DNA from: Obrimoposthia wandeli
Lineage: Eukaryota
Reading direction: 5' to 3'
Assembly (NCBI GenBank): GCA_977020255.1
Contig: CDROCS010000412.1
Location: forward strand, 1-64,000
Length of the DNA: 64,000 nt
In this document: piece after piece, positions 11,384-61,268 of the stretch
Position numbering within the stretch: the stretch's first letter is position 1
Layout: every line of letters begins with the position of its first letter
Notes under the pieces: generated by a model
Told to the model about the DNA's origin: nothing
The model's input: the letters and a program-made list of their open reading frames with translations, nothing else
Databases searched by the model: none
Translations under genes and position numbers: made by a program

Positions 11384-11386
11384 ATT

Positions 11387-19453: not shown

Positions 19454-19481
19454 TTTACAATTTTACAAATTATATTAATTT

Positions 19482-30924: not shown

Positions 30925-31185
30925 CCCCTGAGGACAAACTCAGGTCACGGTGAGGACAAGATGTAGGTCATGACCTCATGAGGTCAACTTAAGGTCAAGA
31001 TGTAGGTCATGACCTCAGGAGGTCATGGGAAAATGTAGGTCAAATTTCTCCCAAGTACACATGATTTTTTATTTAAAGTCATGAGGACAACTTAAGGTCA
31101 CAATGAGGACAAGATGTAGGTCAAGGCAAGTTAAGGTCATGACGTCATGAGGACAATGTACTTTAAGGTCACGGTGAGGTCAAAA
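30925..31185. repeat. Degenerate GC-richer tandem repeat built on AGGTCA half-sites
   Basis: About 12 aggtca copies, including aggtcatgacct palindromes and repeated gaggacaagatgtaggtca. Confidence 0.85.
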
Positions 31186-31364
31186 AGATTCTATTTTTAG
31201 TAACATACTTTAAATCTATATATATTTTTATCTAAAGGTGGTATTAACACCAATTCACCAAAATACATCTCGTGTGTGTGTTTTATAATTTAAATTAAAT
31301 TATCTACTTATAAAATAAAGTATTATATAATTTGATAATCATGTTTAAACGTTCCTATATCTAT

Positions 31365-33498
31365 CTAACAAAGACAGTCACGTACTGCATCTATATTGCA
31401 AAAACCTGCAAATTTATGTAAATTTATGTAAATACCAATATATTTAAAATAAAGACAAGTATTTCTAACACATATATTCCTTAAAATCACAAAGGAGAAT
31501 AAAAATATGTACAACACATATAAAAAGTGACCATAGGCGACTGAACGGTTTTTCTCCACCCACTTGCGCTTATCATCACTACTGCTTAAGGCAATTTTAC
31601 TTAACCTTACAGTAAAAAGTTGATGATTTAGCGAGCTTATACGTTGTTGTTGTACACGCTCGCTAACGCCACTCTCATATACGGCTAAGTAATTAGAGTG
31701 CCTAATACTCGTCTGTCGGAGACTAATACCTTTCGCTCTCATCTGAGATTCACCTTCTGTAGTCTCTAGGCTATATGATTTTGGTCGTAGAAAAATCCCT
31801 TGCCTATAACTAAATAATCCCTTACTCTCATCTTTAAATTTTCCTATCGCTGTATTAATCGTCGTATAAAGCGGATGGGTTTTTGGAAATTTCGAGGTAT
31901 CCAACAGTCCATCAGCAATCATAGCAGGTAACAGTGATTCTTGAACATTGACATTATTACACTTCAAGAAAAAGCTATCAGTGTCACCCGCTATAATTCT
32001 AATGTCGCAGTTAAATTGAACTCGATATTTCTCCAACTGCTCATATTGTAGCTCATACATACGAAGTTTGCTTAAATCTAATACCGCCTGGCCCATGTAA
32101 CTAGGACGATCCAAAACAATATTTTCCTTATCCAGTAAAACTGCAATAAGGTCCGTGTCGATTTCGATTGTCCTACGAAAGTGGGCTTTACTGCAATAGG
32201 TAACCAGCTTCTGTGGAGTATTACAAATCCGGAGGTTAATTCTTTTCATTAGATTCTCAATGAGTTTTCCAAATAAAGAATTCACCTTCAGTTTGTAGTA
32301 ATCCCGCTCGAAATCTGTTGTAGCCGCAGCTCTTTTGAGAGAATTATCCTCAATATTTTTTGAAAAAACAATAGTTTGTTCAAACTGTATTGCTCTATAT
32401 ACAAAATCTACCTTAGCACCAAGTCTAACGTACATTTGTAGCAATCTAGAATGCACAACATAATGTTTCTTAGGGTAATGCGTTAATAACAATTTTTCAG
32501 TCTTACACCCTGGTGGACGCTGTTTAATTGGAGCAAGGGGAAGATCGTCGAATTTATTATGAAGCTCGTTGGGAATGGATAAATCTATTTCCAATAAATG
32601 AGCGAAGCGACTACAGGATAAATCTATTGATTTTAAGCTGGAGATAATATTCCCCAACTCTAACCGATCAGTCACCCAGGAAAAGTTACCACAAGGTAAA
32701 AACTGGGACATAGCCCACCCGTACAAATTATTTACATCAATGTACAAAAGTTCTGTACCATTGATGGCGTCCACGCGGTGTTCATTAACAAATGTCATAC
32801 CCCCGCGAATCCCGGACCGGAAGAGTCGGTACAACTCTGGATCCTGTATTAGCTCGACTCGCACAGGAGGAGAAGAAGAAGCCGGACGAAGCAGGGATTT
32901 GAAAGCACTCGCGAAAGTCAGTCCTGGAAATAAAAACATTTATTAAAATCATTGTGAAAATCATTACTTTGAAAATCATCTATCTAACAAAGACAGTCAC
33001 GTACTGCATCTATATTGCAAATACTTGCATCTTTATGTAATCAATAGTAACAAGAACTACATTTATTCTTATACATGTATATATATATATATGTGTTAGT
33101 GTCTAAAATTAGAAAAAATTAGTAAAATACAAACCAGGGATGGAGAAGAAATTGAGTGGCTCCAATCCATCGTCAGCAATGGCCTTAGTCCGGAATGCTG
33201 TAAACACGTCTGCTAGAAGGTAGACGTCCATCTTCATATAGACCAGCATATAGTCCCAGAGCGATGAGCAGCCGCTCTGAGTCCAGACCATCTTCGCCAT
33301 TTCATATTGTGCTGGCTTGATCTTTTCATCCCACTTTGGCGGTAAGCTGGTGATTGCGCGAAGAGCAGTCTCTGATACTGCCATATCGTATGGGAAGATT
33401 CCCTTGGCGCTCACCAGATGTTGTGAGAAGATGTGTTTTACTACATCAATAAAATTAATTAATCCGGGAAGAGTATATAAGAGAAAAAATAATTTCAT
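31365..33498 (-). CDS. polB: Family B DNA polymerase of protein-primed/Polinton-like type, two exons, 5'-truncated
   Basis: KGIFPYD, Y..MDVYLLADVF (ExoIII), GIRGG, YIDVNNLYGWAM (Pol I), KLKVNSLFGK (Pol II), IAGDTDSFF (Pol III), ..AYGH end. Removing intron 32924..33134 restores FFSIPG|LTFASAFK. No ExoI/II coding found upstream. Confidence 0.9.
32924..33134 (-). other. 211-nt phase-1 GT-AG spliceosomal intron in polB
   Basis: Donor CCT G|GTTTGT, acceptor TTTATTTCCAG|GA CTG; AT-rich interior; frame preserved. Confidence 0.8.
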
Positions 33499-33508
33499 TT
33501 TTTATAAA

Positions 33509-33763
33509 ATGAATTTTCAAGAAATGAAGAATCTAATGAAGCTTGTTACCAAGAAAATTGAGAAGAAAAAGAAAACAGATGATCTCCGACAGAAGATTTT
33601 TAATCTCAATCTATATAATGCCATAGCAAAAGAGTGGAATGAGAAAATAGAAGAAATACAAGTAGTTGAAGCAAGAAGAAGATGCCTGGAATGGAACAAG
33701 AAGATTGAGTTGAAGAAGAAGGAAGCTGGAGATGGAGCACAAACGCAGAGTTCGAAAGATTGA
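33509..33763 (+). CDS. 84-aa Lys/Glu-rich helical protein, unknown function
   Basis: ATG ORF MNFQEMKNLMKLVTKKIEKKK..., purine-rich coding-like composition next to polB. Confidence 0.4.
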   Translation: MNFQEMKNLMKLVTKKIEKKKKTDDLRQKIFNLNLYNAIAKEWNEKIEEIQVVEARRRCLEWNKKIELKKKEAGDGAQTQSSKD

Positions 33764-34839
33764 GCTGATGATGGAGGGGATAAAAGAAGCCCAAGCTAAA
33801 GAAGATCCTTCTGCGAAAAAATAAATATTGTGTGTATGTAAATTTTTCTTCTTTTTCTCTTTACGCGTGTATTTCAAAATTATTTTAAAGTTATTAAACT
33901 AAACTATAATCTTTATCTATGTCTAACAAAGACAGTCACATACTGCATCTATTATGCATGTATGTGTGACTACTAATTAATTAATTAAACATATGTTTTT
34001 CACTTGCTTACATCACTCATGTATGTGTGTGTGAATAATTAGATATAGGTTACCATTTAGTTACTTCACTCAGCCATGTAAATTATTAAACAGAGGTTAA
34101 AATAAAGCTTAATCATGTATGTATGTGTGAGTTTGTATGTGTTTAATAAAGCTTATGTATATTACCAGATATCTAATAACTTGTGTAAAGTTGATCATGT
34201 ATAGTGATTTTACTACATCATATCAAAATTTGTTTTAATGCATCAATTTCAATACCCGCAACTTCAAATATATGTTTGTTATGGTTACAAGTATTCGTGA
34301 TTTTACTACATCATAACAAGATATATTCACTAAATGTAGGCATCACTTCATCTTATCTCTTCATAACTTCATCTTCTCTTCTCATCTAATGTTTACTAAA
34401 GAAACTATGAAATCTCAGATGTTAAACTGAAATTAAGAATAGATCCATATTATACATGTTATTGATTACAGTTATTAAATCTCAATTAAGGTATTGATAT
34501 TTCTAATATAGAATTGAAACTTATACTACTAATAATTTATCAATATAGCTAGTATTTATTGATTTTATCATGCTTACAGACTGTTATGTATTTCTATCAT
34601 ATGAAAATTATAACTAAAGTAGATACTTAAATATCCACAGGGTATTTATATCAATGTATAGCAAATATAGTAAACATACCTAGAAGGATGGAGAATAGTA
34701 ATCCATGGGAGTGTATTCTTATTGGTGGAAGATTGTTTGAACAAGGAAACACATATAGTAAGAATAGCTGAGATAAATTGGAGTATAGTATAGTAATACA
34801 CTGGAATGTCTTCTGATTGCTGGAAGATTGGTTGAGCAG

Positions 34840-35150
34840 GGAATAGACTATAGTAATATGATGTGTATGAGTGTATGTATGTGTGTACATGCATGAATAC
34901 TTAGAAAATTGTATAAGTTGTTTGAGCAAGAAAATAGACTATAGTAATATTATATGTGTATGTATATGTGTGTATGTGTGTGAATACTTTCAAAAATATA
35001 TAACAAATATACTATAGTAATATTGTATGTGTGTGTATGTGTGAATACTAACAAAAATTTACAAGTTGAGAGAACAAGGAAAATAGAACATAGAGACCAT
35101 TGGGTATGTGTATGCATGTGTGTCTGAATACTTACAAGAAATACAAGGTA
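34840..35150. repeat. Degenerate ~85-bp repeats with (GT/AT)n tracts
   Basis: Recurrent aatagactatagtaata..tgtgtatg..gaatact. Confidence 0.6.
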
Positions 35151-35324
35151 TATACTAAAATCTAATCATAAAACATTCCATCTCTATCTTTTTCAATTCC
35201 ACATCGATATTGTTTATCATAATAACAACTATATGTTCTAAAAGTATTGATGTATTCAGGAAATTAATGATATGTTCAGAAAATTTACAATATTTAGATG
35301 CTTCTAGAAGAGAAACAGGGAACT

Positions 35325-35715
35325 CACATGGAAGTTTAGTGGTTTAAGAAGGAAAATAACGTGGAAGTTAGGGAAATCTCGTGGGAGTTGAGTGGTTTAA
35401 GGAGGAAAATAACATGGAAGTTAGGATAATCCCAAGGTAGTTAGGAAAATCTAATGGAAGTTAGGGAAATCTTGTAGTAGTTAGGGAATTCTCAAGGAAG
35501 TTGAGTGGTTTAAGGAGGAAAATAACATGAAAGTTAGGATAATCCCATGATAGTTGAGGAAATCTCATGGTAATTAGGGAAATCTTCCAGTAGTTAGGGA
35601 ATTCTCATGGAAGTTGAGAGGTTTAAGGAGGAAAATAACGTGGTAGTTACGATAATCTCATGGATGTTAAGAGGTTTAAGAGGAAAAAATATAACAAGTA
35701 TTATGGTTTAAGGAA
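35325..35715. repeat. Degenerate purine-rich tandem repeat
   Basis: Recurrent ggtttaaggaggaaaataacatggaagttagg and aatctcatggaagttgag. Confidence 0.8.
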
Positions 35716-36896
35716 AGAATAGCATAGAATCAGACCAATATCAAGCCTACCTCTTTCATTAAAGCATTCATAGATGATGTTTTTTAAATAACATACATAA
35801 TTTAACATTACTTATACATCAATGTTGATTAAAATATTCAACGTTGTAGTTGTTTAACTTTAAACATTTTGTTGTAAAAACTAAGATATTAAGACTTTTG
35901 AGTTAGATAATCAGGTTAGGGTGTAAAGGAAAACATTGGAAATTTTATAAGAATAAATCTAATAATCAATAAATCGAGACATATCTATATCTTCTAACAT
36001 CTCTATCATGAATCTTCTTTCAAAAACTTTCATACCTAACTTTCAGAGAAATTACCAAATACCATAAATTCATATATTTCCATACATATTGATTATTGAA
36101 AAACTGAACTTATCAATATTATCAACATCTAATCTCACTATCATCAACCATCATAAAGTGGTTGATAATAGGAATAATGATTTTTCTAATGTGTCATTGA
36201 GATTTAGACTATAAAATGGAATAATATAGTTAAATATAGAGTAGACTTAGATGTTTTTATTATCATACAAGCGCGTATACAAAGAATCTTATACCAAAAT
36301 TATCGATAATACACATATTTCATCTATATCATAACACATGTTGTAAATCCTAATAAAACCTTTACAATAATTCATCATAACTATTTTATTGATTAATCTA
36401 TTCTATCAGGTAGCTACTGATTATTGAATCTAGGGGCTATGTTTAATATTTCTAAAGATAGCATAGTTTCTCACCATTTTATTAAGATATTACTATTCAT
36501 TACTAACGTTTCATAAATCATCTAATTCAATAAATATCAATATTCACATCAATATATCCTTAACTTTCGAACTTATTATAAAATATTAATAAATATAAAG
36601 GAGAAAATACGTACCTTTGTTAGTTAATTCCATAGAGTCCAAACAAAAGTCACTAAGCCACAGGGTGCAATCTTGTATATTCCATCGTAATTCTGTTGGG
36701 TAGACATTGATCCATTGATATTCCGGAAAATGACATCATAATATTGGATTTTTCTTCTTGAGTTTCCATGATAATATGATGACCTTGCTATAAATCAGCT
36801 TACATGTTTATTTAAATATATCTTTGTTTATATAAAACTGAGACTCAGATTAACCAATAAGAATAGATGATACAATGTTACTAAAAATAGATTATT

Positions 36897-37076
36897 TTAT
36901 AGGGTTAAGAAGAGGAAAATCTCATGGTGGTTAAGATGTTTATGGAGAGTTCTCTTGATGTAATAAAGCTTGTCATCGCCGACAAAATTGGGGTCAACAG
37001 AGCAAGCGCTATCATTGATAGTATATTCTGCACTCTGAATAATCTCATTATAAATTTCAAATAACTCCTTTTCCAT
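36897..37076 (-). CDS. 59-aa ORF (MEKELFEIYNEIIQSAEY...) present in every array unit
   Basis: ATG 37076 to TAA 36897, downstream of rep on the same strand and preceded by paired TATA-like repeats; no family recognised. Confidence 0.35.
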   Translation of the reverse strand: MEKELFEIYNEIIQSAEYTINDSACSVDPNFVGDDKLYYIKRTLHKHLNHHEIFLFLTL

Positions 37077-37420
37077 TATAACTGAAAAAAGAACAAAAAA
37101 CGTTCACTTAAATACAAAATGTTCAAAAAGAACAACAAAACAAAAAAAAATCGCTGTGCTGTTACTATAAATAGATTTTCCTAACTCCTATATGCCTGTG
37201 CTGTGCTATTCTTGTGCTGTTACTATAAATAGATATATGTAACTCCTATATGCTTGTGCTGTGTAATTCTTGTGTAGTCTCTCTTTCCCCTCTTCTTTTT
37301 CCTTTTTCTTAAACATCCATAAGGACACCTACACAGCACAAGCATACAGTAGTTCGGTTCTACACAGTCTACACACCTACACAGCCTCTTCTTGATTTTT
37401 ACCGTGTTCCTTCGGGTGTT

Positions 37421-38317
37421 CTAACCGGGCGGGCTGCACGGGTGCTGCTCGTCAAACATTCGGTCATCCTGGTCGATAGCCTTGGTCCAGGTATGCGGTC
37501 CACTCTGATCGCTGGGTAACTTCCGAATGATCGAAGCATTCTGGCTGCCATTAGTTTTGATAGTTAACCTTGCTTTCTTCACACATGGAGTCAAGGGTGT
37601 ACCCCGCTTCGCCGGAAAAGGTTTCTTAGGAATAGTGATAATATTTGGATCCCTAAAAAGGGGCTGGTTGAACTCGTGGATCTTAATGCGTCTGTTGAGT
37701 GCATCTCTGGTTTCTTGTTCAAGATCCTTCGGCCAAAACAATTGCATAGAGTTGGTGATGAAAATACGAGGCATGAATTGAGGAAGTTGAGCAGATGTAT
37801 ATTTGACATTTACTGTCCTCGTAATGTGTCGATCTACTATATGTAGGAGATTGACCGCCGACCATGAAGCAAAGTTCATGTCGTCAATCACTAAACCGTC
37901 GTGCTCCGGTCCAATTTTAGCGAAATCTTGCCTATCCGAAATGAGAAGGGGATTAACGAAATGTGACAACGCAAAATGCGTTTTGCCTACACCAGTCTTG
38001 CCCACAAATATATGGGTTAGCATAGTAGAAGGATCGCTGAATTTGACTTTCTGGTGATCAGGAACACCTTGCACATCGATAAGAGGCCGAATAAAGTTTT
38101 CTGATTTGTAGATAATGTCCATCCTCTTTTGGAATAAGTAATTGAACGTGCGAGCACACTTATCGTGCTGCATGACAAAAGTTTCCGGCAACACTTGGCG
38201 TAGGTACTCCATTGACTCTTGGGTGCTGGTACATTCTTCCAAAATGTGCTTAAAAACTGATGATTTGTCTCCATCCCTACCTCGTTGTCCAATTTCTGCG
38301 AAATAACCATCTTGCAC
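37421..38317 (-). CDS. rep: Rep lacking the HUH nuclease: oligomerisation region plus SF3 helicase (array copy 1)
   Basis: Walker A GKTGVGKT, Walker B LVIDD, motif C IFITN, Arg finger ALNRRI. The ORF starts at a GTG after motif III is lost. Confidence 0.85.
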   Translation of the reverse strand: MQDGYFAEIGQRGRDGDKSSVFKHILEECTSTQESMEYLRQVLPETFVMQHDKCARTFNYLFQKRMDIIYKSENFIRPLIDVQGVPDHQKVKFSDPSTMLTHIFVGKTGVGKTHFALSHFVNPLLISDRQDFAKIGPEHDGLVIDDMNFASWSAVNLLHIVDRHITRTVNVKYTSAQLPQFMPRIFITNSMQLFWPKDLEQETRDALNRRIKIHEFNQPLFRDPNIITIPKKPFPAKRGTPLTPCVKKARLTIKTNGSQNASIIRKLPSDQSGPHTWTKAIDQDDRMFDEQHPCSPPG

Positions 38318-40456
38318 GTGTGTTTCTGTTTTATATATATCTTTGTTTATATAAAACTGAGACTCAGATTAACCAATAAGAATAGATGATACAATGTTAC
38401 TAAAAATAGATTATTTTATAGGGTTAAGAAGAGGAAAATCTCATGGTGGTTAAGATGTTTATGGAGAGTTCTCTTGATGTAATAAAGCTTGTCATCGCCG
38501 ACAAAATTGGGGTCAACAGAGCAAGCGCTATCATTGATAGTATATTCTGCACTCTGAATAATCTCATTATAAATTTCAAATAACTCCTTTTCCATTATAA
38601 CTGAAAAAAGAACAAAAAACGTTCACTTAAATACAAAATGTTCAAAAAGAACAACAAAACAAAAAAAAAATCGCTGTGCTGTTACTATAAATAGATTTTC
38701 CTAACTCCTATATGCCTGTGCTGTGCTATTCTTGTGCTGTTACTATAAATAGATATATGTAACTCCTATATGCTTGTGCTGTGTAATTCTTGTGTAGTCT
38801 CTCTTTCCCCTCTTCTTTTTCCTTTTTCTTAAACATCCATAAGGACACCTACACAGCACAAGCATACAGTAGTTCGGTTCTACACAGTCTACACACCTAC
38901 ACAGCCTCTTCTTGATTTTTACCGTGTTCCTTCGGGTGTTCTAACCGGGCGGGCTGCACGGGTGCTGCTCGTCAAACATTCGGTCATCCTGGTCGATAGC
39001 CTTGGTCCTGGTATGCGGTCCACTCTGATCGCTGGGTAACTTCCGAATGATCGAAGCATTCTGGCTGCCATTAGTTTTGATAGTTAACCTTGCTTTCTTC
39101 ACACATGGAGTCAAGGGTGTACCCGCTTCGCCGGAAAAGGTTTCTTAGGAATAGTGATAATATTTGGATCCCTAAAAAGGGGCTGGTTGAACTCGTGGAT
39201 CTTAATGCGTCTGTTGAGTGCATCTCTGGTTTCTTGTTCAAGATCCTTCGGCCAAAACAATTGCATAGAGTTGGTGATGAAAATACGAGGCATGAATTGA
39301 GGAAGTTGAGCAGATGTATATTTGACATTTACTGTCCTCGTAATGTGTCGATCTACTATATGTAGGAGATTGACCGCCGACCATGAAGCAAAGTTCATGT
39401 CGTCAATCACTAAACCGTCGTGCTCCGGTCCAATTTTAGCGAAATCTTGCCTATCCGAAATGAGAAGGGGATTAACGAAATGTGACAACGCAAAATGCGT
39501 TTTGCCTACACCAGTCTTGCCCACAAATATGTGGGTTAGCATAGTAGAAGGATCGCTGAATTTGACTTTCTGGTGATCAGGAACACCTTGCACATCGATA
39601 AGAGGCCGAATAAAGTTTTCTGATTTGTAGATAATGTCCATCCTCTTTTGGAATAAGTAATTGAACGTGCGAGCACACTTATCGTGCTGCATGACAAAAG
39701 TTTCCGGCAACACTTGGCGTAGGTACTCCATTGACTCTTGGGTGCTGGTACATTCTTCCAAAATGTGCTTAAAAACTGATGATTTGTCTCCATCCCTACC
39801 TCGTTGTCCAATTTCTGCGAAATAACCATCTTGCACGTGTGTTTCTGTTTTATATATATCTTTGTTTATATAAAACTGAGACTCAGATTAACCAATAAGA
39901 ATAGATGATACAATGTTACTAAAAATAGATTATTTTATAGGGTTAAGAAGAGGAAAATCTCATGGTGGTTAAGATGTTTATGGAGAGTTCTCTTGATGTA
40001 ATAAAGCTTGTCATCGCCGACAAAATTGGGGTCAACAGAGCAAGCGCTATCATTGATAGTATATTCTGCACTCTGAATAATCTCATTATAAATTTCAAAT
40101 AACTCCTTTTCCATTATAACTGAAAAAAGAACAAAAAACGTTCACTTAAATACAAAATGTTCAAAAAGAACAACAAAACAAAAAAATCGCTGTGCTGTTA
40201 CTATAAATAGATTTTCCTAACTCCTATATGCCTGTGCTGTGCTATTCTTGTGCTGTTACTATAAATAGATATATGTAACTCCTATATGCTTGTGCTGTGT
40301 AATTCTTGTGTAGTCTCTCTTTCCCCTCTTCTTTTTTCCTTTTTCTTAAACATCCATAAGGACACCTACACAGCACAAGCATACAGTAGTTCGGTTCTAC
40401 ACAGTCTACACACCTACACAGCCTCTTCTTGATTTTACCGTGTTCCTTCGGGTGTT

Positions 40457-41353
40457 CTAACCGGGCGGGCTGCACGGGTGCTGCTCGTCAAACATTCGGT
40501 CATCCTGGTCGATAGCCTTGGTCCTGGTATGCGGTCCACTCTGATCGCTGGGTAACTTCCGAATGATCGAAGCATTCTGGCTGCCATTAGTTTTGATAGT
40601 TAACCTTGCTTTCTTCACACATGGAGTCAAGGGTGTACCCCGCTTCGCCGGAAAAGGTTTCTTAGGAATAGTGATAATATTTGGATCCCTAAAAAGGGGC
40701 TGGTTGAACTCGTGGATCTTAATGCGTCTGTTGAGTGCATCTCTGGTTTCTTGTTCAAGATCCTTCGGCCAAAACAATTGCATAGAGTTGGTGATGAAAA
40801 TACGAGGCATGAATTGAGGAAGTTGAGCAGATGTATATTTGACATTTACTGTCCTCGTAATGTGTCGATCTACTATATGTAGGAGATTGACCGCCGACCA
40901 TGAAGCAAAGTTCATGTCGTCAATCACTAAACCGTCGTGCTCCGGTCCAATTTTAGCGAAATCTTGCCTATCCGAAATGAGAAGGGGATTAACGAAATGT
41001 GACAACGCAAAATGCGTTTTGCCTACACCAGTCTTGCCCACAAATATGTGGGTTAGCATAGTAGAAGGATCGCTGAATTTGACTTTCTGGTGATCAGGAA
41101 CACCTTGCACATCGATAAGAGGCCGAATAAAGTTTTCTGATTTGTAGATAATGTCCATCCTCTTTTGGAATAAGTAATTGAACGTGCGAGCACACTTATC
41201 GTGCTGCATGACAAAAGTTTCCGGCAACACTTGGCGTAGGTACTCCATTGACTCTTGGGTGCTGGTACATTCTTCCAAAATGTGCTTAAAAACTGATGAT
41301 TTGTCTCCATCCCTACCTCGTTGTCCAATTTCTGCGAAATAACCATCTTGCAC
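40457..41353 (-). CDS. rep: Rep helicase-only copy (array copy 3). Equivalent ORFs with frameshifts at 39111, 42144, 43492, 45180, 54086, 55833, 57291 and others
   Basis: Same motifs as copy 1. Confidence 0.85.
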   Translation of the reverse strand: MQDGYFAEIGQRGRDGDKSSVFKHILEECTSTQESMEYLRQVLPETFVMQHDKCARTFNYLFQKRMDIIYKSENFIRPLIDVQGVPDHQKVKFSDPSTMLTHIFVGKTGVGKTHFALSHFVNPLLISDRQDFAKIGPEHDGLVIDDMNFASWSAVNLLHIVDRHITRTVNVKYTSAQLPQFMPRIFITNSMQLFWPKDLEQETRDALNRRIKIHEFNQPLFRDPNIITIPKKPFPAKRGTPLTPCVKKARLTIKTNGSQNASIIRKLPSDQSGPHTRTKAIDQDDRMFDEQHPCSPPG

Positions 41354-47300: not shown

Positions 47301-50300
47301 GGCGTGGTACTCCATTGACTCTTGGGTGCTGGTACATTCTTCCAAAATGTGCTTAAAAACTGATGATTTGTCTCCATCCCTACCTCGTTGTCCAATTTCT
47401 GCAGAAATAACCATCTTGCACGTGTGTTTCTGTTTTATATATATCTTTGTTTATATAAAACTGAGACTCAGATTAACCAATAAGAATAGATGATACAATG
47501 TTACTAAAATAGATTATTTTATAGGGTTAAGAAGAGGAAAATCTCATGGTGGTTAAGATGTTTATGGAGAGTTCTCTTGATGTAATAAAGCTTGTCATCG
47601 CCGACAAAATTGGGGTCAACAGAGCAAGCGCTATCATTGATAGTATATTCTGCACTCTGAATAATCTCATTATAAATTTCCAATCACTCCTTTTCCATTA
47701 TAACTGAAAAAGAACAAAAACGTTCACTTAAATACAAAATGTTCAAAAGAACAACAAAACAAAAAAATCGCTGTGCTGTTACTATAAATAGATTTTCCTA
47801 ACTCTTATATGCCTGTGCTGTGCTATTCTTGTGCTGTTACTAAAAATAGATATATGTAACTCCTATATGCTTGTGCTGTGTAATTCTTGTGTAGTCTCTC
47901 TTTCCTCCCTTTTTTTTCTTTTTCTTAAACATCCATAAGGACACCTACACAACACTAGCATACAGTAGTTCGGTTCTACACAGTCTACACACCTACACAG
48001 CCTCTTCTTGATTTTTACCGTGTTCCTTCGGGTGTTCTAACCGGGCGGGCTGCACGGGTGCTGCTCGTCAAACATTCGGTCATCCTGGTCGATAGCCTTG
48101 GTCCTGGTATGCGGTCCACTCTGATCGCTGGGTAACTTCCGAATGATCGAAGCATTCTGGCTGCCATTAGTTTTGATAGTTAACCTTGCTTTCTTCACAC
48201 ATGGAGTCAAGGGTGTACCCGCTTCGCCGGAAAAGGTTTCTTAGGAATAGTGATAATATTTGGATCCTAAAAAGGGGCTGGTTGAACTCGTGGATCTTAA
48301 TGCGTCTGTTGAGTGCATCTCTGGTTTCTTGTTCAAGATCCTTCGGCCAAAACAATTGCATAGAGTTGGTGATGAAAATACGAGGCATGAATTGAGGAAG
48401 TTGAGCAGATGTATATTTGACATTTACTGTCCTCGTAATGTGTCGATCTACTATATGTAGGAGATTGACCGCCGACCATGAAGCAAAGTTCATGTCGTCA
48501 ATCACTAAACCGTCGTGCTCCGGTCAATTTTAGCGAAATCTTGCCTATCCGAAATGAGAAGGGGATTAACGAAATGTGACAACGCAAAATGCGTTTTGCC
48601 TACACCAGTCTTGCCCACAAATATAGGGTTAGCATAGTAGAAGGATCGCTGAATTTGACTTTCTGGTGATCAGGAACACCTTGCACATCGATAAGAGGCC
48701 GAATAAAGTTTTCTGATTTGTAGATAATGTCCATCCTCTTTGGAATAAGTAATTGAACGTGCGAGCACACTTATCGTGCTGCATGACAAAAGTTTCCGGC
48801 AACACTTGGCGTAGGTACTCCATTGACTCTTGGGTGCTGGTACATTCTTCCAAAATGTGCTTAAAAACTGATGATTTGTCTCCATCCCTACCTCGTTGTC
48901 CAATTTCTGCGAAATAACCATCTTGCACGTGTGTTTCTGTTTTATATATATCTTTGTTTATATAAAACTGAGACTCAGATTAACCAATAAGAATAGATGA
49001 TACAATGTTACTAAAAATAGATTATTTTATAGGGTTAAGAAGAGGAAAATCTCATGGTGGTTAAGATGTTTATGGAGAGTTCTCTTGATGTAATAAAGCT
49101 TGTCATCGCCGACAAAATTGGGGTCAACAGAGCAAGCGCTATCATTGATAGTATATTCTGCACTCTGAATAATCTCATTATAAATTTCAAATAACTCCTT
49201 TTCCATTATAACTGAAAAAAGAACAAAAAACGTTCACTTAAATACAAAATGTTCAAAAGAACAACAAAACAAAAAAATCGCTGTGCTGTTACTATAAATA
49301 GATTTTCCTAACTCCTATATGCCTGTGCTGTGCTATTCTTGTGCTGTTACTATAAATAGATATATGTAACTCCTATATGCTTGTGCTGTGTAATTCTTGT
49401 GTAGTCTCTCTTTCCCCCCCTTCTTTTTCCTTTTACTTAAACATCCATAAGGACACCTACACAGCACAAGCATACAGTAGTTCAGGTTCTACACAGTCTA
49501 CACACCTACACAGCCTCTTCTTGATTTTTACCGTGTTCTCTTCGGGTGTTCTAACTGGGCGGGCTGCACGGGTGCTGCTCGTCAAACATTCGGTCATCCT
49601 GGTCGATAGCCTTGGTCCTGGTATGCGGTCCACTCTGATCGCTGGGTAACTTCCGAATGATCGAAGCATTCTGGCTGCCATTAGTTTTGATAGTTAACCT
49701 TGCTTTCTTCACACATGGAGTCAAGGGTGTACCTTCGCCTTCGCCGGAAAAGGTTTCTTAGAATAGTGATAATATTTGGATCCCTAAAAAGGGGCTGGTT
49801 GAACTCGTGGATCTTAATGCGTCTGTTGAGTGCATCTCTGGTTTCTTGTTCAAGATCCTTCGGCCAAAACAATTGCATAGAGTTGGTGATGAAAATACGA
49901 GGCATGAATTGAGGAAGTTGAGCAGATGTATATTTGACATTTACTGTCCTCGTAATGTGTCGATCTACTATATGTAGGAGATTGACCGCCGACCATGAAG
50001 CAAAGTTCATGTCGTCAATCACTAAACCGTCGTGCTCCGGTCCAATTTTAGCGAAATCTTGCCTATCCGAAATGAGAAGGGGATTAACGAAATGTGACAA
50101 CGCAAAATGCGTTTTGCCTACACCAGTCTTGCCCACAAATATATGGGTTAGCATAGTAGAAGGATCGCTGAATTTGACTTTTTGGGTGATCAGGAACCCT
50201 TTCCACCTCGAAAAGAGGCCGAATAAAGTTTTCTGATTTGTAGATAATGTCCATCCTCTTTTGGAATAAGTAATTGAACGTGCGAGCACACTTATCGTTC

Positions 50301-53300
50301 TGCATGACAACAGTTTCCGGCAACTCTTGGCATAGGTACTCCATTGACTCTTGGGTGCTGGTACATTCTTCCAAAATGTGCTTAAAAACTGATGATTTGT
50401 CTCCATCCCTACCTCGTTGTCCAATTTCTGCGAAATAACCATCTTGCACGTGTGTTTCTGTTTTATATATATCTTTGTTTACATAAAACTGAGACTCAGA
50501 TTAACCAATAAGAATAGATGATACAATGTTACTAAAAATAGATTATTTTATAGGGTTAAGAAGAGGAAAATCTCATGGTGGTTAAGATGTTTATGGAGAG
50601 TTCTCTTGATGTAATAAAGCTTGTCATCGCCGACAAAATTGGGGTCAACAGAGCAAGCGCTATCATTGATAGTATATTCTGCACTCTGAATAATCTCATT
50701 ATAAATTTCAAATAACTCCTTTTCCATTATAACTGAAAAAAGAACAAAAACGTTCACTTAAATACAAAATGTTCAAAAAGAACAACAAAACAAAAAAATC
50801 GCTGTGCTGTTACTATAAATAGATTTTCCTAACTCTATATGCCTGTGCTGTGCTATTCTTGTGCTGTTACTATAAATAGATATAATGTAACCTCTATATG
50901 CTTGTGCTGTGTAATTCTTGTGTAGTCTCTCTTTCCCCTCTTCTTTTTCCTTTTTTCTTAAACATCCATAAGGACACCTACACAGCACAAGCATACAGTA
51001 GTTCAGTTCTACACAGTCTACACACCTACACAGCCTCTTCTTGATTTTACCGTGTTCCTTCGGGTGTTCTAACCGGGCGGGCTGCACGGGTGCTGCTCGT
51101 CAAACATTCGGTCATCCTGGTCGATAGCCTTGGTCCTGGTATGCGGTCCACTCTGATCGCTGGGTAACTTCCGAATGATCGAAGCATTCTGGCTGCCATT
51201 AGTTTTGATAGTTAACCTTGCTTTCTTCACACATGGAGTCAAGGGTGTACCCGCTTCGCCGGAAAAGGTTTCTTAGGAATAGTGATAATATTTGGATCCC
51301 TAAAAAGGGGCTGGTTGAACTCGTGGATCTTAATGCGTCTGTTGAGTGCATCTCTGGTTTCTTGTTCAAGATCCTTCGGCCAAAACAATTGCATAGAGTT
51401 GGTGATGAAAATACGAGGCATGAATTGAGGAAGTTGAGCAGATGTATATTTGACATTTACTGTCCTCGTAATGTGTCGATCTACTATATGTAGGAGATTG
51501 ACCGCCGACCATGAAGCAAAGTTCATGTCGTCAATCACTAAACCGTGTGCTGGTCAATTTTAGCGAAATCTTGCCTATCCGAAATGAGAAGGGGATTAAC
51601 GAAATGTGACAACGCAAATGCCGTTTTGCCAACACAAGCCTTGCCCACAAATATATGGGTTAGCATGGTAGAAGGATCGCGGAATTTGACTTCCTGGGGA
51701 TAAGGAACACCTTGCACATCGATAAGGGGCCGAATAAAGTTTTCTGATTTGTAGATAATGTCCATCCTCTTTGGAATAAGTAATTGAACGTGCGAGCACA
51801 CTTATCGTGCTGCATGACAAAAGTTTCCGGCAACACTTGGCGTAGGTACTCCATTGACTCTTGGGTGCTGGTACATTCTTCCAAAATGTGCTTAAAACTG
51901 ATGATTTGTCTCCATCCCTACCTCGTTGTCCAATTTCTGCGAAATAACCATCTTGCACGTGTGTTTCTGTTTTATATATATCTTTGTTTATATAAAACTG
52001 AGACTCAGATTAACCAATAAGAATAGATGATACAATGTTACTAAAAATAGATTATTTTATAGGGTTAAGAAGAGGAAAATCTCATGGTGGTTAAGATGTT
52101 TATGGAGAGTTCTCTTGATGTAATAAAGCTTGTCATCGCCGACAAAATTGGGGTCAACAGAGCAAGCGCTATCATTGATAGTATATTCTGCACTCTGAAT
52201 AATCTCATTATAAATTTCAACAACTCCTTTTCCATTATAACTGAAAAAAGAACAAAAACGTTCACTTAAATACAAAATGTTCAAAAGAACAACAAAACAA
52301 AAAAAATCGCTGTGCTGTTACTATAAATAGATTTTCCTAACTCCTATATGCCTGTGCTGTGCTATTCTTGTGCTGTTACTATAAATAGATACATATCACT
52401 CCTTTATGCTTGTTCTGTATAATGTTTGTGTAGTCTCTCTTTCCCTCTTCTTTTTCCTTTTCTTAAACATCCATAAGGACACCTACACAGCACAAGCATA
52501 CAGTAGTTCGGTTCTACACAGTCTACACACCTACACAGCCTCTTCTTGATTTTACCGTGTTCCTTCGGGTGTTCTAACCGGGCGGGCTGCACGGGTGCTG
52601 CTCGTCAAACATTCGGTCATCCTGGTCGATAGCCTTGGTCTGGTATGCGGTCCACTCTGATCGCTGGGTAACTTCCGAATGATCGAAGCATTCTGGCTGC
52701 CATTAGTTTTGATAGTTAACCTTGCTTTCTTCACACATGGAGTCAAGGGTGTACCCCGCTTCGCCGGAAAAGGTTTCTTAGGAATAGTGATAATATTTGG
52801 ATCCCTAAAAGGGGCTGGTTGAACTCGTGGATCTTAATGCGTCTGTTGAGTGCATCTCTGGTTTCTTGTTCAAGATCCTTCGGCCAAAACAATTGCATAG
52901 AGTTGGTGATGAAAATACGAGGCATGAATTGAGGAAGTTGAGCAGATGTATATTTGACATTTACTGTCCTCGTAATGTGTCGATCTACTATATGTAGGAG
53001 ATTGACCGCCGACCATGAAGCAAAGTTCATGTCGTCAATCACTAAACCGTCGTGTCTCCAGTCCAATTTTAGCGAAATCTTGCCTATCCGAAATGAGAAG
53101 GGGATTAACGAAATGTGACAACGCAAAATGCGTTTTGCCTTACACCAGTCTTGCCCACAAATATATGGGTTAGCATAGTAGAAGGATCGCTGAATTTGAC
53201 TTTCTGGTGATCAGGAACACCTTGCACATCGATAAGAGGCCGAATAAAGTTTTCTGATTTGTAGATAATGTCCATCCTCTTTTGGAATAAGTAATTGAAC

Positions 53301-53936
53301 GTGCGAGCACACTTATCGTGCTGCATGACAAAAGTTTCCGGCAACACTTGGCGTAGGTACTCCATTGACTCTTGGGTGCTGGTACATTCTTCCAAAATGT
53401 GCTTAAAACTGATGATTTGTCTCCATCCCTACCTCGTTGTCCAATTTCTGCGAAATAACCATCTTGCACGTGTGTTTCTGTTTTATATATATCTTTGTTT
53501 ATATAAAACTGAGACTCAGATTAACCAATAAGAATAGATGATACAATGTTACTAAAAAAGAGATTATTTTATAGGGTTAAGAAGAGGAAAATCTCATGGT
53601 GGTTAAGATGTTTATGGAGAGTTCTCTTGATGTAATAAAGCTTGTCATCGCCGACAAAATTGGGGTCAACAGAGCAAGCGCTATCATTGATAGTATATTC
53701 TGCACTCTGAATAATCTCATTATAAATTTCAAATAACTCCTTTTCCATTATAACTGAAAAAGAACAAAAACGTTCACTTAAATACAAAATGTTCAAAAGA
53801 ACAACAAAACAAAAATCGCTGTGCTGTTACTATAAATAGATTTTCCTAACTCCTATATGCCTGTGCTGTGCTATTCTTGTGCTGTTACTATAAATAGATA
53901 TATGTAACTCCTATATGCTTGTGCTGTGTAATTCTT

Positions 53937-53971
53937 GTGTAGATCTCGGTGGTCGCCGTATCATTAAAAAA
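53937..53971 (+). other. Illumina P5 adapter read-through sequence (assembly/polishing artefact)
   Basis: GTGTAGATCTCGGTGGTCGCCGTATCATT followed by AAAAAA replaces the tagtctctctttcccc.. seen at this position in the other units. Confidence 0.95.
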
Positions 53972-56900
53972 TCTTAAACATCCATAAGGACACCTACACA
54001 GCACAAGCATACAGTAGTTCGGTTCTACACAGTCTACACACCTACACAGCCTCTTCTTGATTTTTACCGTGTTCCTTCGGGTGTTCTAACCGGGCGGGCT
54101 GCACGGGTGCTGCTCGTCAAACATTCGGTCATCCTGGTCGATAGCCTTGGTCCTGGTATGCGGTCCACTCTGATCGCTGGGTAACTTCCGAATGATCGAA
54201 GCATTCTGGCTGCCATTAGTTTTGATAGTTAACCTTGCTTTCTTCACACATGGAGTCAAGGGTGTACCCCGCTTCGCCGGAAAAGGTTTCTTAGGAATAG
54301 TGATAATATTTGGATCCCTAAAAAGGGGCTGGTTGAACTCGTGGATCTTAATGCGTCTGTTGAGTGCATCTCTGGTTTCTTGTTCAAGATCCTTCGGCCA
54401 AAACAATTGCATAGAGTTGGTGATGAAAATACGAGGCATGAATTGAGGAAGTTGAGCAGATGTATATTTGACATTTACTGTCCTCGTAATGTGTCGATCT
54501 ACTATATGTAGGAGATTGACCGCCGACCATGAAGCAAAGTTCATGTCGTCAATCACTAAACCGTCGTGCTCCGGTCCAATTTTAGCGAAATCTTGCCTAT
54601 CCGAAATGAGAAGGGGATTAACGAAATGTGACAACGCAAAATGCGTTTTGCCTACACCAGTCTTGCCCATAAATATATGGGTTAGCATAGTAGAAGGATC
54701 GCTGAATTTGACTTTCTGGTGATCAGGAACACCTTGCACATCGATAAGAGGTCGAATAAAGTTTGCTGATTTGTAGATAATGTCCATCCTCTTTTTGGAA
54801 TAAGTAATTGAACGTGCGAGCACACTTATCGTGCTGCATGACAAAAGTTTCCGGCAACACTTGGCGTAGGTACTCCATTGACTCTTGGGTGCTGGTACAT
54901 TCTTCCAAAATGTGCTTAAAAACTGATGATTTGTCTCCATCCCTACCTCGTTGTCCAATTTCTGCGAAATAACCATCTTGCACGTGTGTTTCTGTTTATA
55001 TATATCTTTGTTTATATAAAACTGAGACTCAGATTAACCAATAAGAATAGATGATACAATGTTACTAAAATAGATTATTTTATAGGGTTAAGAAGAGGAA
55101 AATCTCATGGTGGTTAAGATGTTTATGGAGAGTTCTCTTGATGTAATAAAGCTTGTCATCGCCGACAAAATTGGGGTCAATAGAGCAAGCGCTATCATTG
55201 ATAGTATATTCTGCACTCTGAATAATCTCATTATAAATTTCAAATAACTCCTTTTCCATTATAACTGAAAAAAGAACAAAAAACGTTCACTTAAATACAA
55301 AATGTTCAAAAAGAACAACAAAACAAAAAAAAATCGCTGTGCTGTTACTATAAATAGATTTTCCTAACTCCTATATGCCTGTGCTGTGCTATTCTTGTGC
55401 TGTTACTATAAATAGATATATGTAACTCCTATATGCTTGTGCTGTGTAATTTTGTGTAGTCTCTCTTTCCCCTCTTCTTTTCCTTTGTCTTAAACATCCA
55501 TAAGGACACCTACACAGCACAAGCATACAGTAGTTCGGTTCTACACAGTCTACACACCTACACAGCCTCTTCTTGATTTTTACCGTGTTCCTTCGGGTGT
55601 TCTAACCGGGCGGGCTGCACGGGTGCTGCTCGTCAAACATTCGGTCATCCTGGTCGATAGCCTTGGTCCTGGTATGCGGTCCACTCTGATCGCTGGGTAA
55701 CTTCCGAATGATCGAAGCATTCTGGCTGCCATTAGTTTTGATAGTTAACCTTGCTTTCTTCACACATGGAGTCAAGGGTGTACCCGCTTCGCCGGAAAAG
55801 GTTTCTTAGGAATAGTGATAATATTTGGATCCCTAAAAAAGGGGCTGGTTGAACTCGTGGATCTTAATGCGTCTGTTGAGTGCATCTCTGGTTTCTTGTT
55901 CAAGATCCTTCGGCCAAAACAATTGCATAGAGTTGGTGATGAAAATACGAGGCATGAATTGAGGAAGTTGAGCAGATGTATATTTGACATTTACTGTCCT
56001 CGTAATGTGTCGATCTACTATATGTAGGAGATTGACCGCCGACCATGAAGCAAAGTTCATGTCGTCAATCACTAAACCGTCGTGCTCCGGTCCAATTTTA
56101 GCGAAATCTTGCCTATCCGAAATGAGAAGGGGATTAACGAAATGTGACAACGCAAAATGCGTTTTGCCTACACCAGTCTTGCCCACAAATATATGGGTTA
56201 GCATAGTAGAAGGATCGCTGAATTTGACTTTCTGGTGATCAGGAACACCTTGCACATCGATAAGAGGCCGAATAAAGTTTTCTGATTTGTAGATAATGTC
56301 CATCCTCTTTTTGGAATAAGTAATTGAACGTGCGAGCACACTTATCGTGCTGCATGACAAAAGTTTCCGGCAACACTTGGCGTAGGTACTCCATTGACTC
56401 TTGGGTGCTGGTACATTCTTCCAAAATGTGCTTAAAAACTGATGATTTGTCTCCATCCCTACCTCGTTGTCCAATTTCTGCGAAATAACCATCTTGCACG
56501 TGTGTTTCTGTTTTATATATATCTTTGTTTATATAAAACTGAGACTCAGATTAACCAATAAGAATAGATGATACAATGTTACTAAAAATAGATTATTTTA
56601 TAGGGTTAAGAAGAGGAAAATCTCATGGTGGTTAAGATGTTTATGGAGAGTTCTCTTGATGTAATAAAGCTTGTCATCGCCGACAAAATTGGGGTCAACA
56701 GAGCAAGCGCTATCATTGATAGTATATTCTGCACTCTGAATAATCTCATTATAAATTTCAAATAACTCCTTTTCCATTATAACTGAAAAAAGAACAAAAA
56801 ACGTTCACTTAAATACAAAATGTTCAAAAAGAACAACAAAACAAAAAAAAATCGCTGTGCTGTTACTATAAATAGATTTTCCTAACTCCTATATGCCTGT

Positions 56901-58638
56901 GCTGTGCTATTCTTGTGCTGTTACTATAAATAGATATATGTAACTCCTATATGCTTGTGCTGTGTAATTCTTGTGTAGTCTCTCTTTCCCTCTTCTTTTT
57001 CCTTTTTTCTAAACATCCATAAGGACACCTACACAGCACAAGCATACAGTAGTTCGGTTCTACACAGTCTACACACCTACACAGCCTCTTCTTGATTTTT
57101 ACCGTGTTCCTTCGGGTGTTCTAACCGGGCGGGCTGCACGGGTGCTGCTCGTCAAACATTCGGTCATCCTGGTCGATAGCCTTGGTCCTGGTATGCGGTC
57201 CACTCTGATCGCTGGGTAACTTCCGAATGATCGAAGCATTCTGGCTGCCATTAGTTTTGATAGTTAACCTTGCTTTCTTCACACATGGAGTCAAGGGTGT
57301 ACCCGCTTCGCCGGAAAAGGTTTCTTAGGAATAGTGATAATATTTGGATCCCTAAAAAGGGGCTGGTTGAACTCGTGGATCTTAATGCGTCTGTTGAGTG
57401 CATCTCTGGTTTCTTGTTCAAGATCCTTCGGCCAAAACAATTGCATAGAGTTGGTGATGAAAATACGAGGCATGAATTGAGGAAGTTGAGCAGATGTATA
57501 TTTGACATTTACTGTCCTCGTAATGTGTCGATCTACTATATGTAGGAGATTGACCGCCGACCATGAAGCAAAGTTCATGTCGTCAATCACTAAACCGTCG
57601 TGCTCCGGTCCAATTTTAGCGAAATCTTGCCTATCCGAAATGAGAAGGGGATTAACGAAATGTGACAACGCAAAATGCGTTTTGCCTACACCAGTCTTGC
57701 CCACAAATATATGGGTTAGCATAGTAGAAGGATCGCTGAATTTGACTTTCTGGTGATCAGGAACACCTTGCACATCGATAAGAGGCCGAATAAAGTTTTC
57801 TGATTTGTAGATAATGTCCATCCTCTTTTGGAATAAGTAATTGAACGTGCGAGCACACTTATCGTGCTGCATGACAAAAGTTTCCGGCAACACTTGGCGT
57901 AGGTACTCCATTGACTCTTGGGTGCTGGTACATTCTTCCAAAATGTGCTTAAAAACTGATGATTTGTCTCCATCCCTACCTCGTTGTCCAATTTCTGCGA
58001 AATAACCATCTTGCACGTGTGTTTCTGTTTTATATATATCTTTGTTTATATAAAACTGAGACTCAGATTAACCAATAAGAATAGATGATACAATGTTACT
58101 AAAAATAGATTATTTTATAGGGTTAAGAAGAGGAAAATCTCATGGTGGTTAAGATGTTTATGGAGAGTTCTCTTGATGTAATAAAGCTTGTCATCGCCGA
58201 CAAAATTGGGGTCAACAGAGCAAGCGCTATCATTGATAGTATATTCTGCACTCTGAATAATCTCATTATAAATTTCAAATAACTCCTTTTCCATTATAAC
58301 TGAAAAAAGAACAAAAAACGTTCACTTAAATACAAAATGTTCAAAAAGAACAACAAAACAAAAAACTATCGCTGTGCTGTTACTATAAATAGATTTTCCT
58401 AACTCCTATATGCCTGTGCTGTGCTATTCTTGTGCTGTTACTATAAATAGATATATGTAACTCCTATATGCTTGTGCTGTGTAATTCTTGTGTAGTCTCT
58501 CTTTCCCCTCTTCTTTTTCCTTTTTCTTAAACATCCATAAGGACACCTACACAGCACAAGCATACAGTAGTTCGGTTCTACACAGTCTACACACCTACAC
58601 AGCCTCTTCTTGATTTTTACCGTGTTCCTTCGGGTGTT

Positions 58639-59937
58639 CTAACCGGGCGGGCTGCACGGGTGCTGCTCGTCAAACATTCGGTCATCCTGGTCGATAGCCT
58701 TGGTCCTGGTATGCGGTCCACTCTGATCGCTGGGTAACTTCCGAATGATCGAAGCATTCTGGCTGCCATTAGTTTTGATAGTTAACCTTGCTTTCTTCAC
58801 ACATGGAGTCAAGGGTGTACCCCGCTTCGCCGGAAAAGGTTTCTTAGGAATAGTGATAATATTTGGATCCTTAAAAAGGGGCTGGTTGAACTCGTGGATC
58901 TTAATGCGTCTGTTGAGTGCATCTCTGGTTTCTTGTTCAAGATCCTTCGGCCAAAACAATTGCATAGAGTTGGTGATGAAAATACGAGGCATGAATTGAG
59001 GAAGTTGAGCAGATGTATATTTGACATTTACTGTCCTCGTAATGTGTCGATCTACTATATGTAGGAGATTGACCGCCGACCATGAAGCAAAGTTCATGTC
59101 GTCAATCACTAAACCGTCGTGCTCCGGTCCAATTTTAGCGAAATCTTGCCTATCCGAAATGAGAAGGGGATTAACGAAATGTGACAACGCAAAATGCGTT
59201 TTGCCTACACCAGTCTTGCCCACAAATATATGGGTTAGCATAGTAGAAGGATCGCTGAATTTGACTTTCTGGTGATCAGGAACACCTTGCACATCGATAA
59301 GAGGCCGAATAAAGTTTTCTGATTTGTAGATAATGTCCATCCTCTTTTGGAATAAGTAATTGAACGTGCGAGCACACTTATCGTGCTGCATGACAAAAGT
59401 TTCCGGCAACACTTGGCGTAGGTACTCCATTGACTCTTGGGTGCTGGTACATTCTTCCAAAATGTGCTTAAAAACTGATGATTTGTCTCCATCCCTACCT
59501 CGTTGTCCAATTTCTGCGAAATAACCATCTTGCACGTGTGTTTCTGTTTTGTTTGTTTTTTTGACATATTCTATCATATGATCGACATCTGCAGCATCGA
59601 CTGGTATAACATAGCGAATAACGAGCGCCTTACAGGCAGCCGAACATGTTTTTGCCGATTTGAATGTAGCGAATCCCTGAATCGAAATTAGCGATTAATA
59701 AAATCAATATTAAAAGCAAATTCAGATACCTGAAGGTGGTGAAATCCGAGAACTGACATTTCCTCTTGGATCACGAAGTATTTAGAGTGCTTGACTGCAT
59801 TGGCAGCGAAAGCCTCGGGACTGGAATCAGCGGTTAAACGATTGAATTGGTTGATAGAATTTGATTGTGATTGAAAATGTCTTGTGGCGGATTATTAGAA
59901 TTGCTTTGACAGAATCACAGTAAAACGTCATAATCAT
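58639..59937 (-). CDS. rep: Full-length circovirus-like Rep (HUH endonuclease plus SF3 helicase), spliced
   Basis: KYFVIQEEMSVLGFHHLQ|GFATFK (motif II across intron 59677..59729), IEYVKK (motif III), then helicase. Candidate motif I (KTFSITIKF) and ATG 59937 need a 1-nt correction at ~59836..59838 or another intron. Confidence 0.8.
59677..59729 (-). other. 53-nt phase-0 GT-AG intron in Rep motif II
   Basis: CAC CAC CTT CAG|GTATCT...CGCTAATTTCGATTCAG|GGA TTC. Branch-point-like CTAAT; in-frame stop inside the intron. Confidence 0.85.
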
Positions 59938-61268
59938 GATTCAATCCAAAATCGAAATAATGTTGAATAATTATAAATCAAATTGTATTATAACTCTGTC
60001 CTCGTCAATATTGTTTCAGAGATTCTAAAATTGTACATATATATATATGATTTTGTATTTAGTTTGTTCATATATGAAAATACAAATGTCAAATGTGACT
60101 GGTACACACAAGGGAGCCGATGGGATGACTGGGAGATGGTGGCAGAAAAATTGGCTAAACAATTACAGTGAAAAACCCTTAAAATTAAAAAATATTTCGT
60201 TTTAACAGATAATCATAGAAAATTAGAAAACAACGAAACACAATGTAGATTTAAAACTTTAATACCTATCAGCAAACAATTAAAACCCATATATATTTAA
60301 TTCCTTGTAAATAAATCTGTAATTTTCTTTTGTGACATTCTCTATAATGCTTACATTTTTAATCTCGACTCTTAGCTTTTGAGAAAGGACACGTTTGCAC
60401 TGCATTCGTTGACATTGCACTGAAGATAATATCGACTTCTGATTGCATCGCTTGTCGAAGGATACTTCGTCGATACAACCTGTACCTTATTCTGTCTCAT
60501 CCTTGATTCCATAATCAGTTCTTGCTGCTTAACAGATGCATATCAATGGAGGAAAATGAATCAAATGTCACGTCATCCTGGATATGAAGAAAGCATCACA
60601 CTATTTCAAACAAATCTTTCTAATGCGCTTTTATGGTGTCACAATTCGTCAGTAATGTTGAAGAGTAAATCCAAAATTACGTAAAAACAAATTTGTGAAT
60701 CAAAAAATTACAAATACTTTTAACATTTTTTTCCTTTTCTATGCATGGTAAAATAAACTTTTCTGTCCATAGATAAAATATAATCGAAAAATGGTCATTT
60801 TATTTACAGAAATTCGTTACTTTTTTCAGTTATACAATTATTGTATTTTATTTAATAGAAGACGAATTTGATTAAAAAGCACAAGACAGATAAATTAATA
60901 ATCTTTTATAACATCTGTAAAATTTATCGTTGAATTATTATTTTTCCATTTAAGCATGTTGTAACGATGTAATGAAAATTACGAACGGAAACCATTAATT
61001 CATCTTCAGTTTTAGGCTTAGTTGATCTAGCTAAGTATTTTCATTGAGAAAACATATTCTCAATATGATGGAGAAAGGACTGTATCGGCTGCCTTTACAA
61101 TACAAATTTGCTTCAATTTGATTGGTATCTGGTGGCATTGCCTTATAATCTATCGGTGACGATTTTGACATGGGAGGTATAGTTGTTATAATTGAAGGTA
61201 GGAAATGCGACAAAACAACAATAATTTTATTATAATTGTAATTATTTTTCACTTTCACAAAATATTGG

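Follow-up and report, generated by a model that had tools for sequence, protein, structure and literature searches.

Do a polymerase gene and a replication initiator gene that lie close together on one strand form a single hybrid replicon? The question is raised by a 64,000-nt stretch of Obrimoposthia wandeli DNA (contig CDROCS010000412.1, positions 1 to 64,000; henceforth the window), for which a first-pass annotation made from the sequence alone had proposed a capsid-less element combining a spliced, protein-primed DNA polymerase (pPolB, gene polB) with an array of spliced Rep genes of the HUH type. All coordinates refer to this contig (C412, i.e., the window is C412:1-64000) of a 1.35-Gb AT-rich assembly, whose other contigs are named likewise. 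The window pair consists of broken parts of one composite element; with both genes truncated, it cannot be a self-sufficient replicon. The proposed capsid-less hybrid does exist in this genome, mostly with another polymerase (family B, see below). The reading that we prefer, and hold to be fairly probable, is that the window contains a truncated member of a composite family in which the core of a single-stranded DNA (ssDNA) virus became fused to the ends and polymerases of Polintons. Its members likely use the Polinton ends for protein-primed replication, with integrase likely provided in trans and Rep probably being an accessory or a passenger.

With regard to the polymerase, exon 2 (31365-32923, minus strand) carries polymerase motifs A, B and C and is, as annotated, open. 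Its stop-to-stop frame of 524 codons spans 31365-32939 (minus strand), since a small deletion at the natural stop lets the frame run on to 31365. A 211-nt GT..AG intron (32924-33134, minus strand) separates it from a remnant of exon 1 (33135-33431, minus strand, 98 codons) that retains Exo III alone. In a homolog of 1312 amino acids (aa) that has no interruption, the two exons correspond to residues 749-851 and 853-1310, and splicing of the 33134-32924 intron is supported by this homology. The gene is not complete: the window copy is the 3' ~43% of a family-A polymerase, truncated at 33431, such that ~748 of ~1310 residues (~57%), including Exo I and Exo II, are absent. The same truncation junction is also present at C4263 and C1040. 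The family-A polymerase has a DNA_pol_B_2 match above cut-off and full-length PF03175 homologs of 50-60% identity; it is predicted to be of the protein-primed type. Each of the 89 best scored genomic matches of the window polB is at least 97% identical to it. Because its family sits in classic Polintons and the composite's left end at 30891 is the family terminus (5'-AGTAGG end plus subterminal repeats, 30891-31420), the window polB is a fragment of an ordinary Polinton of family A. The annotation had named polB residing in ordinary Polintons as evidence against its proposal, and for this polymerase (polA) that is what we observe, i.e., a major-capsid-family open reading frame (ORF) is found in 20/20 of the best polA loci and Rep in 0/20 within 10 kb. 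The polymerase of a second family, B, shares ~74% aa identity with that of family A and has a 39-nt intron at the site of the 211-nt intron; a more distant pPolB family of the same genome has none at that site. The intron was apparently gained within the Polinton lineage of families A and B.

The Rep side of the window is a tandem array of 15 units of ~1519 bp each (36814-59550, minus strand). One unit comprises Rep from just past motif III, i.e., its superfamily 3 (SF3) helicase, followed by a linker with 58-bp repeats, the stub of an NS1/E1-like helicase and ~135 bp of the adjoining arm. A 12-nt microhomology, at which the strand is inverted, joins the linker (37101-37443, minus strand) to the Rep tail, and the stub (36950-37100, minus strand) is the N-terminal part, 58 codons, of a second viral helicase whose fuller copies match Parvo_NS1 and PPV_E1_C. 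Units show 97.9-99.7% identity to the right-most one, the central ones being indel-rich, and 11/15 keep an open helicase core. Of the annotated array of intron-containing HUH Reps, the intron stands: it measures 53 nt, runs from GT to AG and lies within HUH motif II (59677-59729, minus strand). The HUH motif itself and motif III are found in 1/15 units and motif I in 0/15. Intron and HUH motif thus occur in a single, near-complete unit, with exon 2 at 58639-59676 (minus strand; motif III, SF3 Walker A/B, motif C and Arg finger) and an exon 1 remnant at 59730-59842 (minus strand) that has kept the HUH motif and lost start codon and motif I. Other genomic copies extend past the cut at 59842 to the true start and motif I. 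An ATG at 59937 was rejected as Rep start, as it is out of the Rep frame and its flank is non-homologous. Among the best 40 matches to the Rep 5' junction, C412 is the sole carrier; the array unit junction, which sits at the edge of the examined stretch, is absent from the listed short-read joints.

An alignment with 18 homologs brings the exon ends at the Rep intron into direct contact, and GT..AG is present at the respective spacing in 34/36 genomic copies; both exons are open in 7/36. Judged by sequence, the intron is real. The four contig sets (one sample) are DNA-like, contain no joint at either intron and have no bearing on splicing. In the same alignment, motifs I, II (HUH) and III as well as the SF3 helicase are complete in other copies, by which Rep classifies as of the CRESS (circular Rep-encoding ssDNA) type with a fused SF3 helicase. 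With 1261 representatives at E<=0.001, the Rep family is a large one, the best identity being 43-46%; a pattern scan of IMG/VR returned no relatives. Within the genome, Rep copies differ by 1-3%.

Rep and polB of the window lie on the same strand and 3.4 kb apart, as annotated. The spacer had been described as repeats and decayed sequence; it is instead a Polinton-derived arm (33432-36949) with ~95% identity to the arms of other Rep/VP-bearing elements. It is 95% identical to the arm of C1040, is common to C4263 and C3828 as well, and harbors a small ORF (33470-33763, plus strand) whose 43-48% relatives adjoin other Polinton genes. On C3828, the sister of the window, tandem Rep and polA exon 2 are likewise found on one strand, and the window Rep clusters with the C3828 Rep (support 0.92). 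Neither capsid, integrase nor packaging ATPase is found within 31365-59937, in agreement with the annotation. The flank past 59842 is unique sequence; to the right of Rep it contains a 35-bp minisatellite with 7.9 copies (61264-61538).

We also assessed how Rep and Polintons are associated in the remaining assembly. In 40/41 scored Rep contigs, Polinton A or B sequence lies no more than 1 kb from the viral core, and such sequence is present in 0/20 arbitrary 10-kb control stretches. Three contigs below the nucleotide filter (C487, C912, C6774) were left unscored, and about a dozen further Rep contigs lie outside the set; C487 is fused to a Polinton A terminus, while C912 and C6774 show no Polinton feature. 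That is, the linkage of Rep to Polintons is genome-wide and not a matter of chance. The annotation had kept chance adjacency as plausible and had named unlinked rep and polB loci elsewhere as what would speak against a hybrid; these counts go against both.

The source family A was defined by extending six of the 20 polA loci to the full element. A full copy at C2182 spans 16.2 kb with terminal inverted repeats (TIRs) and the target-site duplication (TSD) TGTATC. Sister copies encode an integrase (rve, E=5.6e-14, plus chromo), a Pox_A32 ATPase (3.6e-6) and a Peptidase_C5 protease (5e-4), beside IAP, TBP and phosphatase genes as cargo. For the low-confidence structure model of the capsid ORF (predicted local distance difference test, pLDDT, of 48), the top Foldseek and VIA matches are all double-jelly-roll (DJR) capsids (E 2.7e-8; Z 9.7, root mean square deviation 22). 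In 3/6 full-length-type copies, viral linker and helicase remnant are located between the phosphatase and ATPase genes, and this gap is likely the original viral insertion site. The window itself shows a TBP-like ORF at 170-532 (minus strand) with 42% identity to the TBP cargo of family A, which probably derives from another Polinton family. Furthermore, Polintons or their derivatives are often nested in other Polintons, with TSDs (C3393, C3583, C5094), which suggests a target preference.

The captured ssDNA-virus core of which the CRESS-type Rep is a part also comprises the NS1/E1-like helicase and an orphan capsid-like ORF. At other Rep loci, a convergent neighbour ORF matches Parvo_NS1 and PPV_E1_C, and a divergent orphan ORF of ~600 codons lies beside Rep (e.g., L014:78-1881, minus strand). 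We take the motifs of the latter to resemble those of parvovirus capsids. It has no match among PDB sequences, Pfam, PHROGs, a set of 5.8 billion proteins and the Atlas, and its single-sequence structure model (pLDDT 30) is too poor to use. Orphan ORF, linker and helicase follow each other in this order at C487, C1040 and C4263, which fits a circular virus of ~5 kb. The linker is a hot spot for tandem duplication and fold-back; the viral core of the four loci searched contains no canonical nonanucleotide hairpin.

Complete composites with Polinton ends and an exact 6-bp TSD were found for Rep with polB of family B (polB-B; three elements), Rep with full polA (three) and Rep with the capsid-like ORF (one). 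The shared termini, which the annotation had suggested to define, are the Polinton TIRs, of which the window retains the left end only. In the first subfamily, Rep stands head-to-head with polB-B at one junction that is seen 15 times in 12 contigs. Here, polB-B replaces the capsid-like ORF, and the junction removes an upstream region that 16/20 Rep-less polB-B copies have. These elements are 10-12.5 kb long, have the layout TIR-polB-Rep-polB-TIR without capsid or integrase, and 3/5 two-ended ones show exact TSDs (C652, C1393, C1741). They bear out the capsid-less Rep and polB hybrid as such, which the truncated window pair does not; replication initiated by Rep is a proposal. In the second subfamily, a start-less Rep is placed head-to-head with full polA, with ATPase, integrase and penton deleted; its single junction is common to 9 contigs, and 3/3 two-ended elements have exact TSDs (C2570, C3225, C5094). 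The third has Rep and the orphan ORF between family-A arms; its TSD is exact in C3393 and matches at 5/6 positions in C579. The fourth is the window lineage (C412), which shares its arm with C1040, C4263 and C3828. Both the window element and the Rep hybrids bounded by TSDs are devoid of integrase, and no copy was seen in which pPolB and the entire capsid-like ORF occur together.

PolB-B itself is mainly found in polymerase-only mini-Polintons of ~6.5 kb (TIR-pPolB-TIR, 6-bp TSD, no integrase or capsid), some of which are palindromic; examples are C60:23727-30187, C154:387965-394183 and C1896:9203-16324. Among five such elements, three TSDs are exact and two have one mismatch. Rep adjoins 15 of the best 40 polB-B matches and is found within 9.5 kb upstream in 0/20 further polB-B loci. 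By a rough estimate from the four contig sets, read depth of polB-B exceeds that of Rep ~100-fold. No capsid-encoding autonomous Polinton of family B was among 20 loci inspected.

The following route would account for these elements. A virus may have integrated into Polinton A between the phosphatase and ATPase genes. Deletions, fold-backs and recombinations produced the subfamilies, each with one shared junction, and the composites moved as units, with 6-bp TSDs. In the B hybrids, polB probably lost its own upstream region and would be driven by a viral bidirectional promoter shared with Rep. In the window copy, Rep lies on the same strand as the polA fragment because its tail was inverted onto the linker at the 12-nt microhomology; local 15-fold tandem amplification, possibly Rep-assisted, and loss of the right end would have followed. 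Palindromic arms may stem from copy-back during strand displacement. The sections on Polintons in PMC4061559 and PMC6431247 describe protein-primed replication from the TIRs and insertion by a DDE integrase; integration of the composites likely relies on a Polinton integrase in trans, presumably that of family A.

Several observations weigh against this reading. The order of events is deduced from junctions and not from a rooted tree, the right end and TSD of the window element are missing (no partner terminus is found in C412:59843-94000), two of the five two-ended Rep+polB-B elements (C465, C2829) show no matching TSD, and the look-ups lend no support to the presumed capsid identity of the orphan ORF. 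Moreover, Rep variants present in at least 3 copies lean towards synonymous changes (14 synonymous, 11 nonsynonymous; omega ~0.28, p=0.001), where omega is a crude count over non-independent copies. Singleton Rep variants show an omega of 1.15; the values are 0.93 for the N-terminal half and 0.27 for the C-terminal exon of polB-B, and 0.12 for polA. The synonymous bias would fit a Rep that is useful during spread, and variation inherited from the free virus would explain it, too.

Alternatively, the Rep+polB-B elements could be true dual replicons, in which Rep nicks an origin in the linker, the element's own pPolB extends, both genes use one bidirectional promoter and the integrase is borrowed for insertion alone. 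In favour of this, the synonymous bias also holds for changes found for the most part in B-derived and window-like lineages only, both exons are open in the 7/36 copies mentioned above, the linker is prone to duplication and fold-back, and Rep is in tandem in the window and its sister C3828. We nevertheless consider such dual replicons unlikely, as composites with broken Rep moved as well, i.e., the 9-contig subfamily spread with a start-less Rep and Rep-fragment elements have TSDs (C6116), and the searched viral cores lack the canonical hairpin. Rep is probably not required for integration because the polB-only minis integrate too, with TSDs, and are far more abundant. A wider claim is doubtful, if slightly less so: a recently active capsid-less and integrase-less class in which Polinton ends enclose a protein-primed polymerase, spliced, and a functional spliced HUH Rep-helicase, both under one viral bidirectional promoter. 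Such a class would have arisen more than once, with two polymerase families, and would represent a living intermediate between a Polinton that took up an ssDNA virus and bidnavirus-like replicons.

The ~45 Rep loci within 1-3% of one another might also suggest that this Rep underlies a Replitron- or Helitron-like HUH transposon, by which Polinton pieces are captured and moved, and Rep bears an intron like the Replitron-1 described in part of PMC10288648. The termini largely refute this, i.e., the ends are Polinton TIRs with 6-bp TSDs and 44 contigs revealed no terminus specific to Rep; Rep furthermore has an SF3 helicase, unlike Replitrons, such that we regard this explanation as very improbable. 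Even less credible is chance proximity of a decayed Polinton to an endogenous CRESS virus, or a fault of the assembly. Polintons are indeed very abundant in this genome, the array unit junction is found on C412 alone (best 40 matches), and with the indel-rich central units the unit number may be inflated. On the other hand, exact junctions and arms are common to independent loci, in contrast to the controls (0/20), and short-read contigs cross the 5' truncation (one contig, reaching 25 nt into Rep) and a Rep-polB-B junction. The depth of array-specific sequence is also ~6 times that of the flank, which roughly points to a true multi-copy state.

Compared with known systems, our preferred composite family shares with Polinton/Maverick (adintovirus-like) elements a pPolB with DNA_pol_B_2 and Endonuclease_7, 5'-AGTAG termini and a 6-bp TSD, and for family A also rve+chromo integrase, A32 ATPase, C5 protease and putative capsid genes. 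It differs by the predicted spliceosomal intron in pPolB, by derivatives that bear an ssDNA-virus Rep, and by hybrids without integrase, ATPase and (B type) capsids. For bidnaviruses, the relevant part of Krupovic and Koonin 2014 (PMC4061559) proposes a parvovirus-in-Polinton ancestor. As in that proposal, ssDNA-virus genes sit here in a chromosomal Polinton scaffold, with TIRs and pPolB kept and other genes lost; unlike there, the HUH Rep is kept, is of the CRESS type, and the elements are known from DNA alone. The family is thus likely a Polinton-derived composite resembling the proposed hybrid intermediate. Bidnaviridae combine pPolB, SF3 helicase and a parvovirus-type capsid and have no HUH endonuclease, such that the retained HUH Rep places the family outside of them.

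We further assume, by description only, that the viral core resembles the planarian elements PEVE/PIVE, whose gene content we take to include an NS1/E1-like helicase and a circovirus-like Rep in a small element. PEVE has an inverted-repeat architecture, as is the case here. PEVE/PIVE are named in section 8 of PMC3198968, and the Parvo3071 group as described in part of Buck et al. 2024 (PMC11071296), with NS1 and an auxiliary CRESS Rep, matches the viral core by description; unlike here, Polinton ends and a polymerase go unmentioned for them in the respective passages. Transpoviron-like pPolB modules (passages of bioRxiv 10.64898/2026.10.13.758929) are likewise capsid-less with pPolB between TIRs, but carry a DDE transposase where the family-B minis have pPolB alone. 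Replitrons, in the part of PMC10288648 concerned, are eukaryotic mobile elements with an intron-bearing Rep as well, yet have neither helicase nor polymerase and end in direct terminal repeats, compared with the fused SF3 helicase and TIR ends here. Teratorn is also a virus-transposon fusion, but of piggyBac and a herpesvirus.

The entry of a small ssDNA virus into a Polinton, by which it takes over polymerase and ends in a host chromosome, is in the relevant part of PMC4061559 a proposed step, previously unobserved. This genome displays the step in multi-copy products that are very young and have TSDs and datable junctions, which opens route and role of Rep to study in a living host. Two further features are an intron gained by Polinton polymerases and a mini-Polinton that carries a polymerase only and is abundant. 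A full-text literature search, with subscription journals and Repbase outside its reach, returned no report of Polinton derivatives with CRESS-type Rep and TSDs, and the passages covered of PMC10288648, PMC4405056, PMC8502044 and bioRxiv 10.1101/2023.10.16.562556, 10.64898/2026.06.19.733378 and 10.64898/2026.10.13.758929 do not describe such elements.

Finally, the window contains two further elements. At 6313-8317, an inverted-repeat pair (6854-7100 / 7802-8175) accompanies ORF fragments of no Pfam family, which may represent a decayed tyrosine-recombinase element. A young gypsy long terminal repeat (LTR) retrotransposon of 14.4 kb spans 10429-24875; its LTRs are 99.3% identical and its frames are broken by stops and frameshifts. 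Its gag and pol flank the gene of a Monjiviricetes-type fusion glycoprotein, and an ORF for a DEDD exonuclease follows pol. This gag-env-pol order with a mononegavirus-like glycoprotein resembles the arrangement of the planarian Burro element as outlined in part of PMC6431247.

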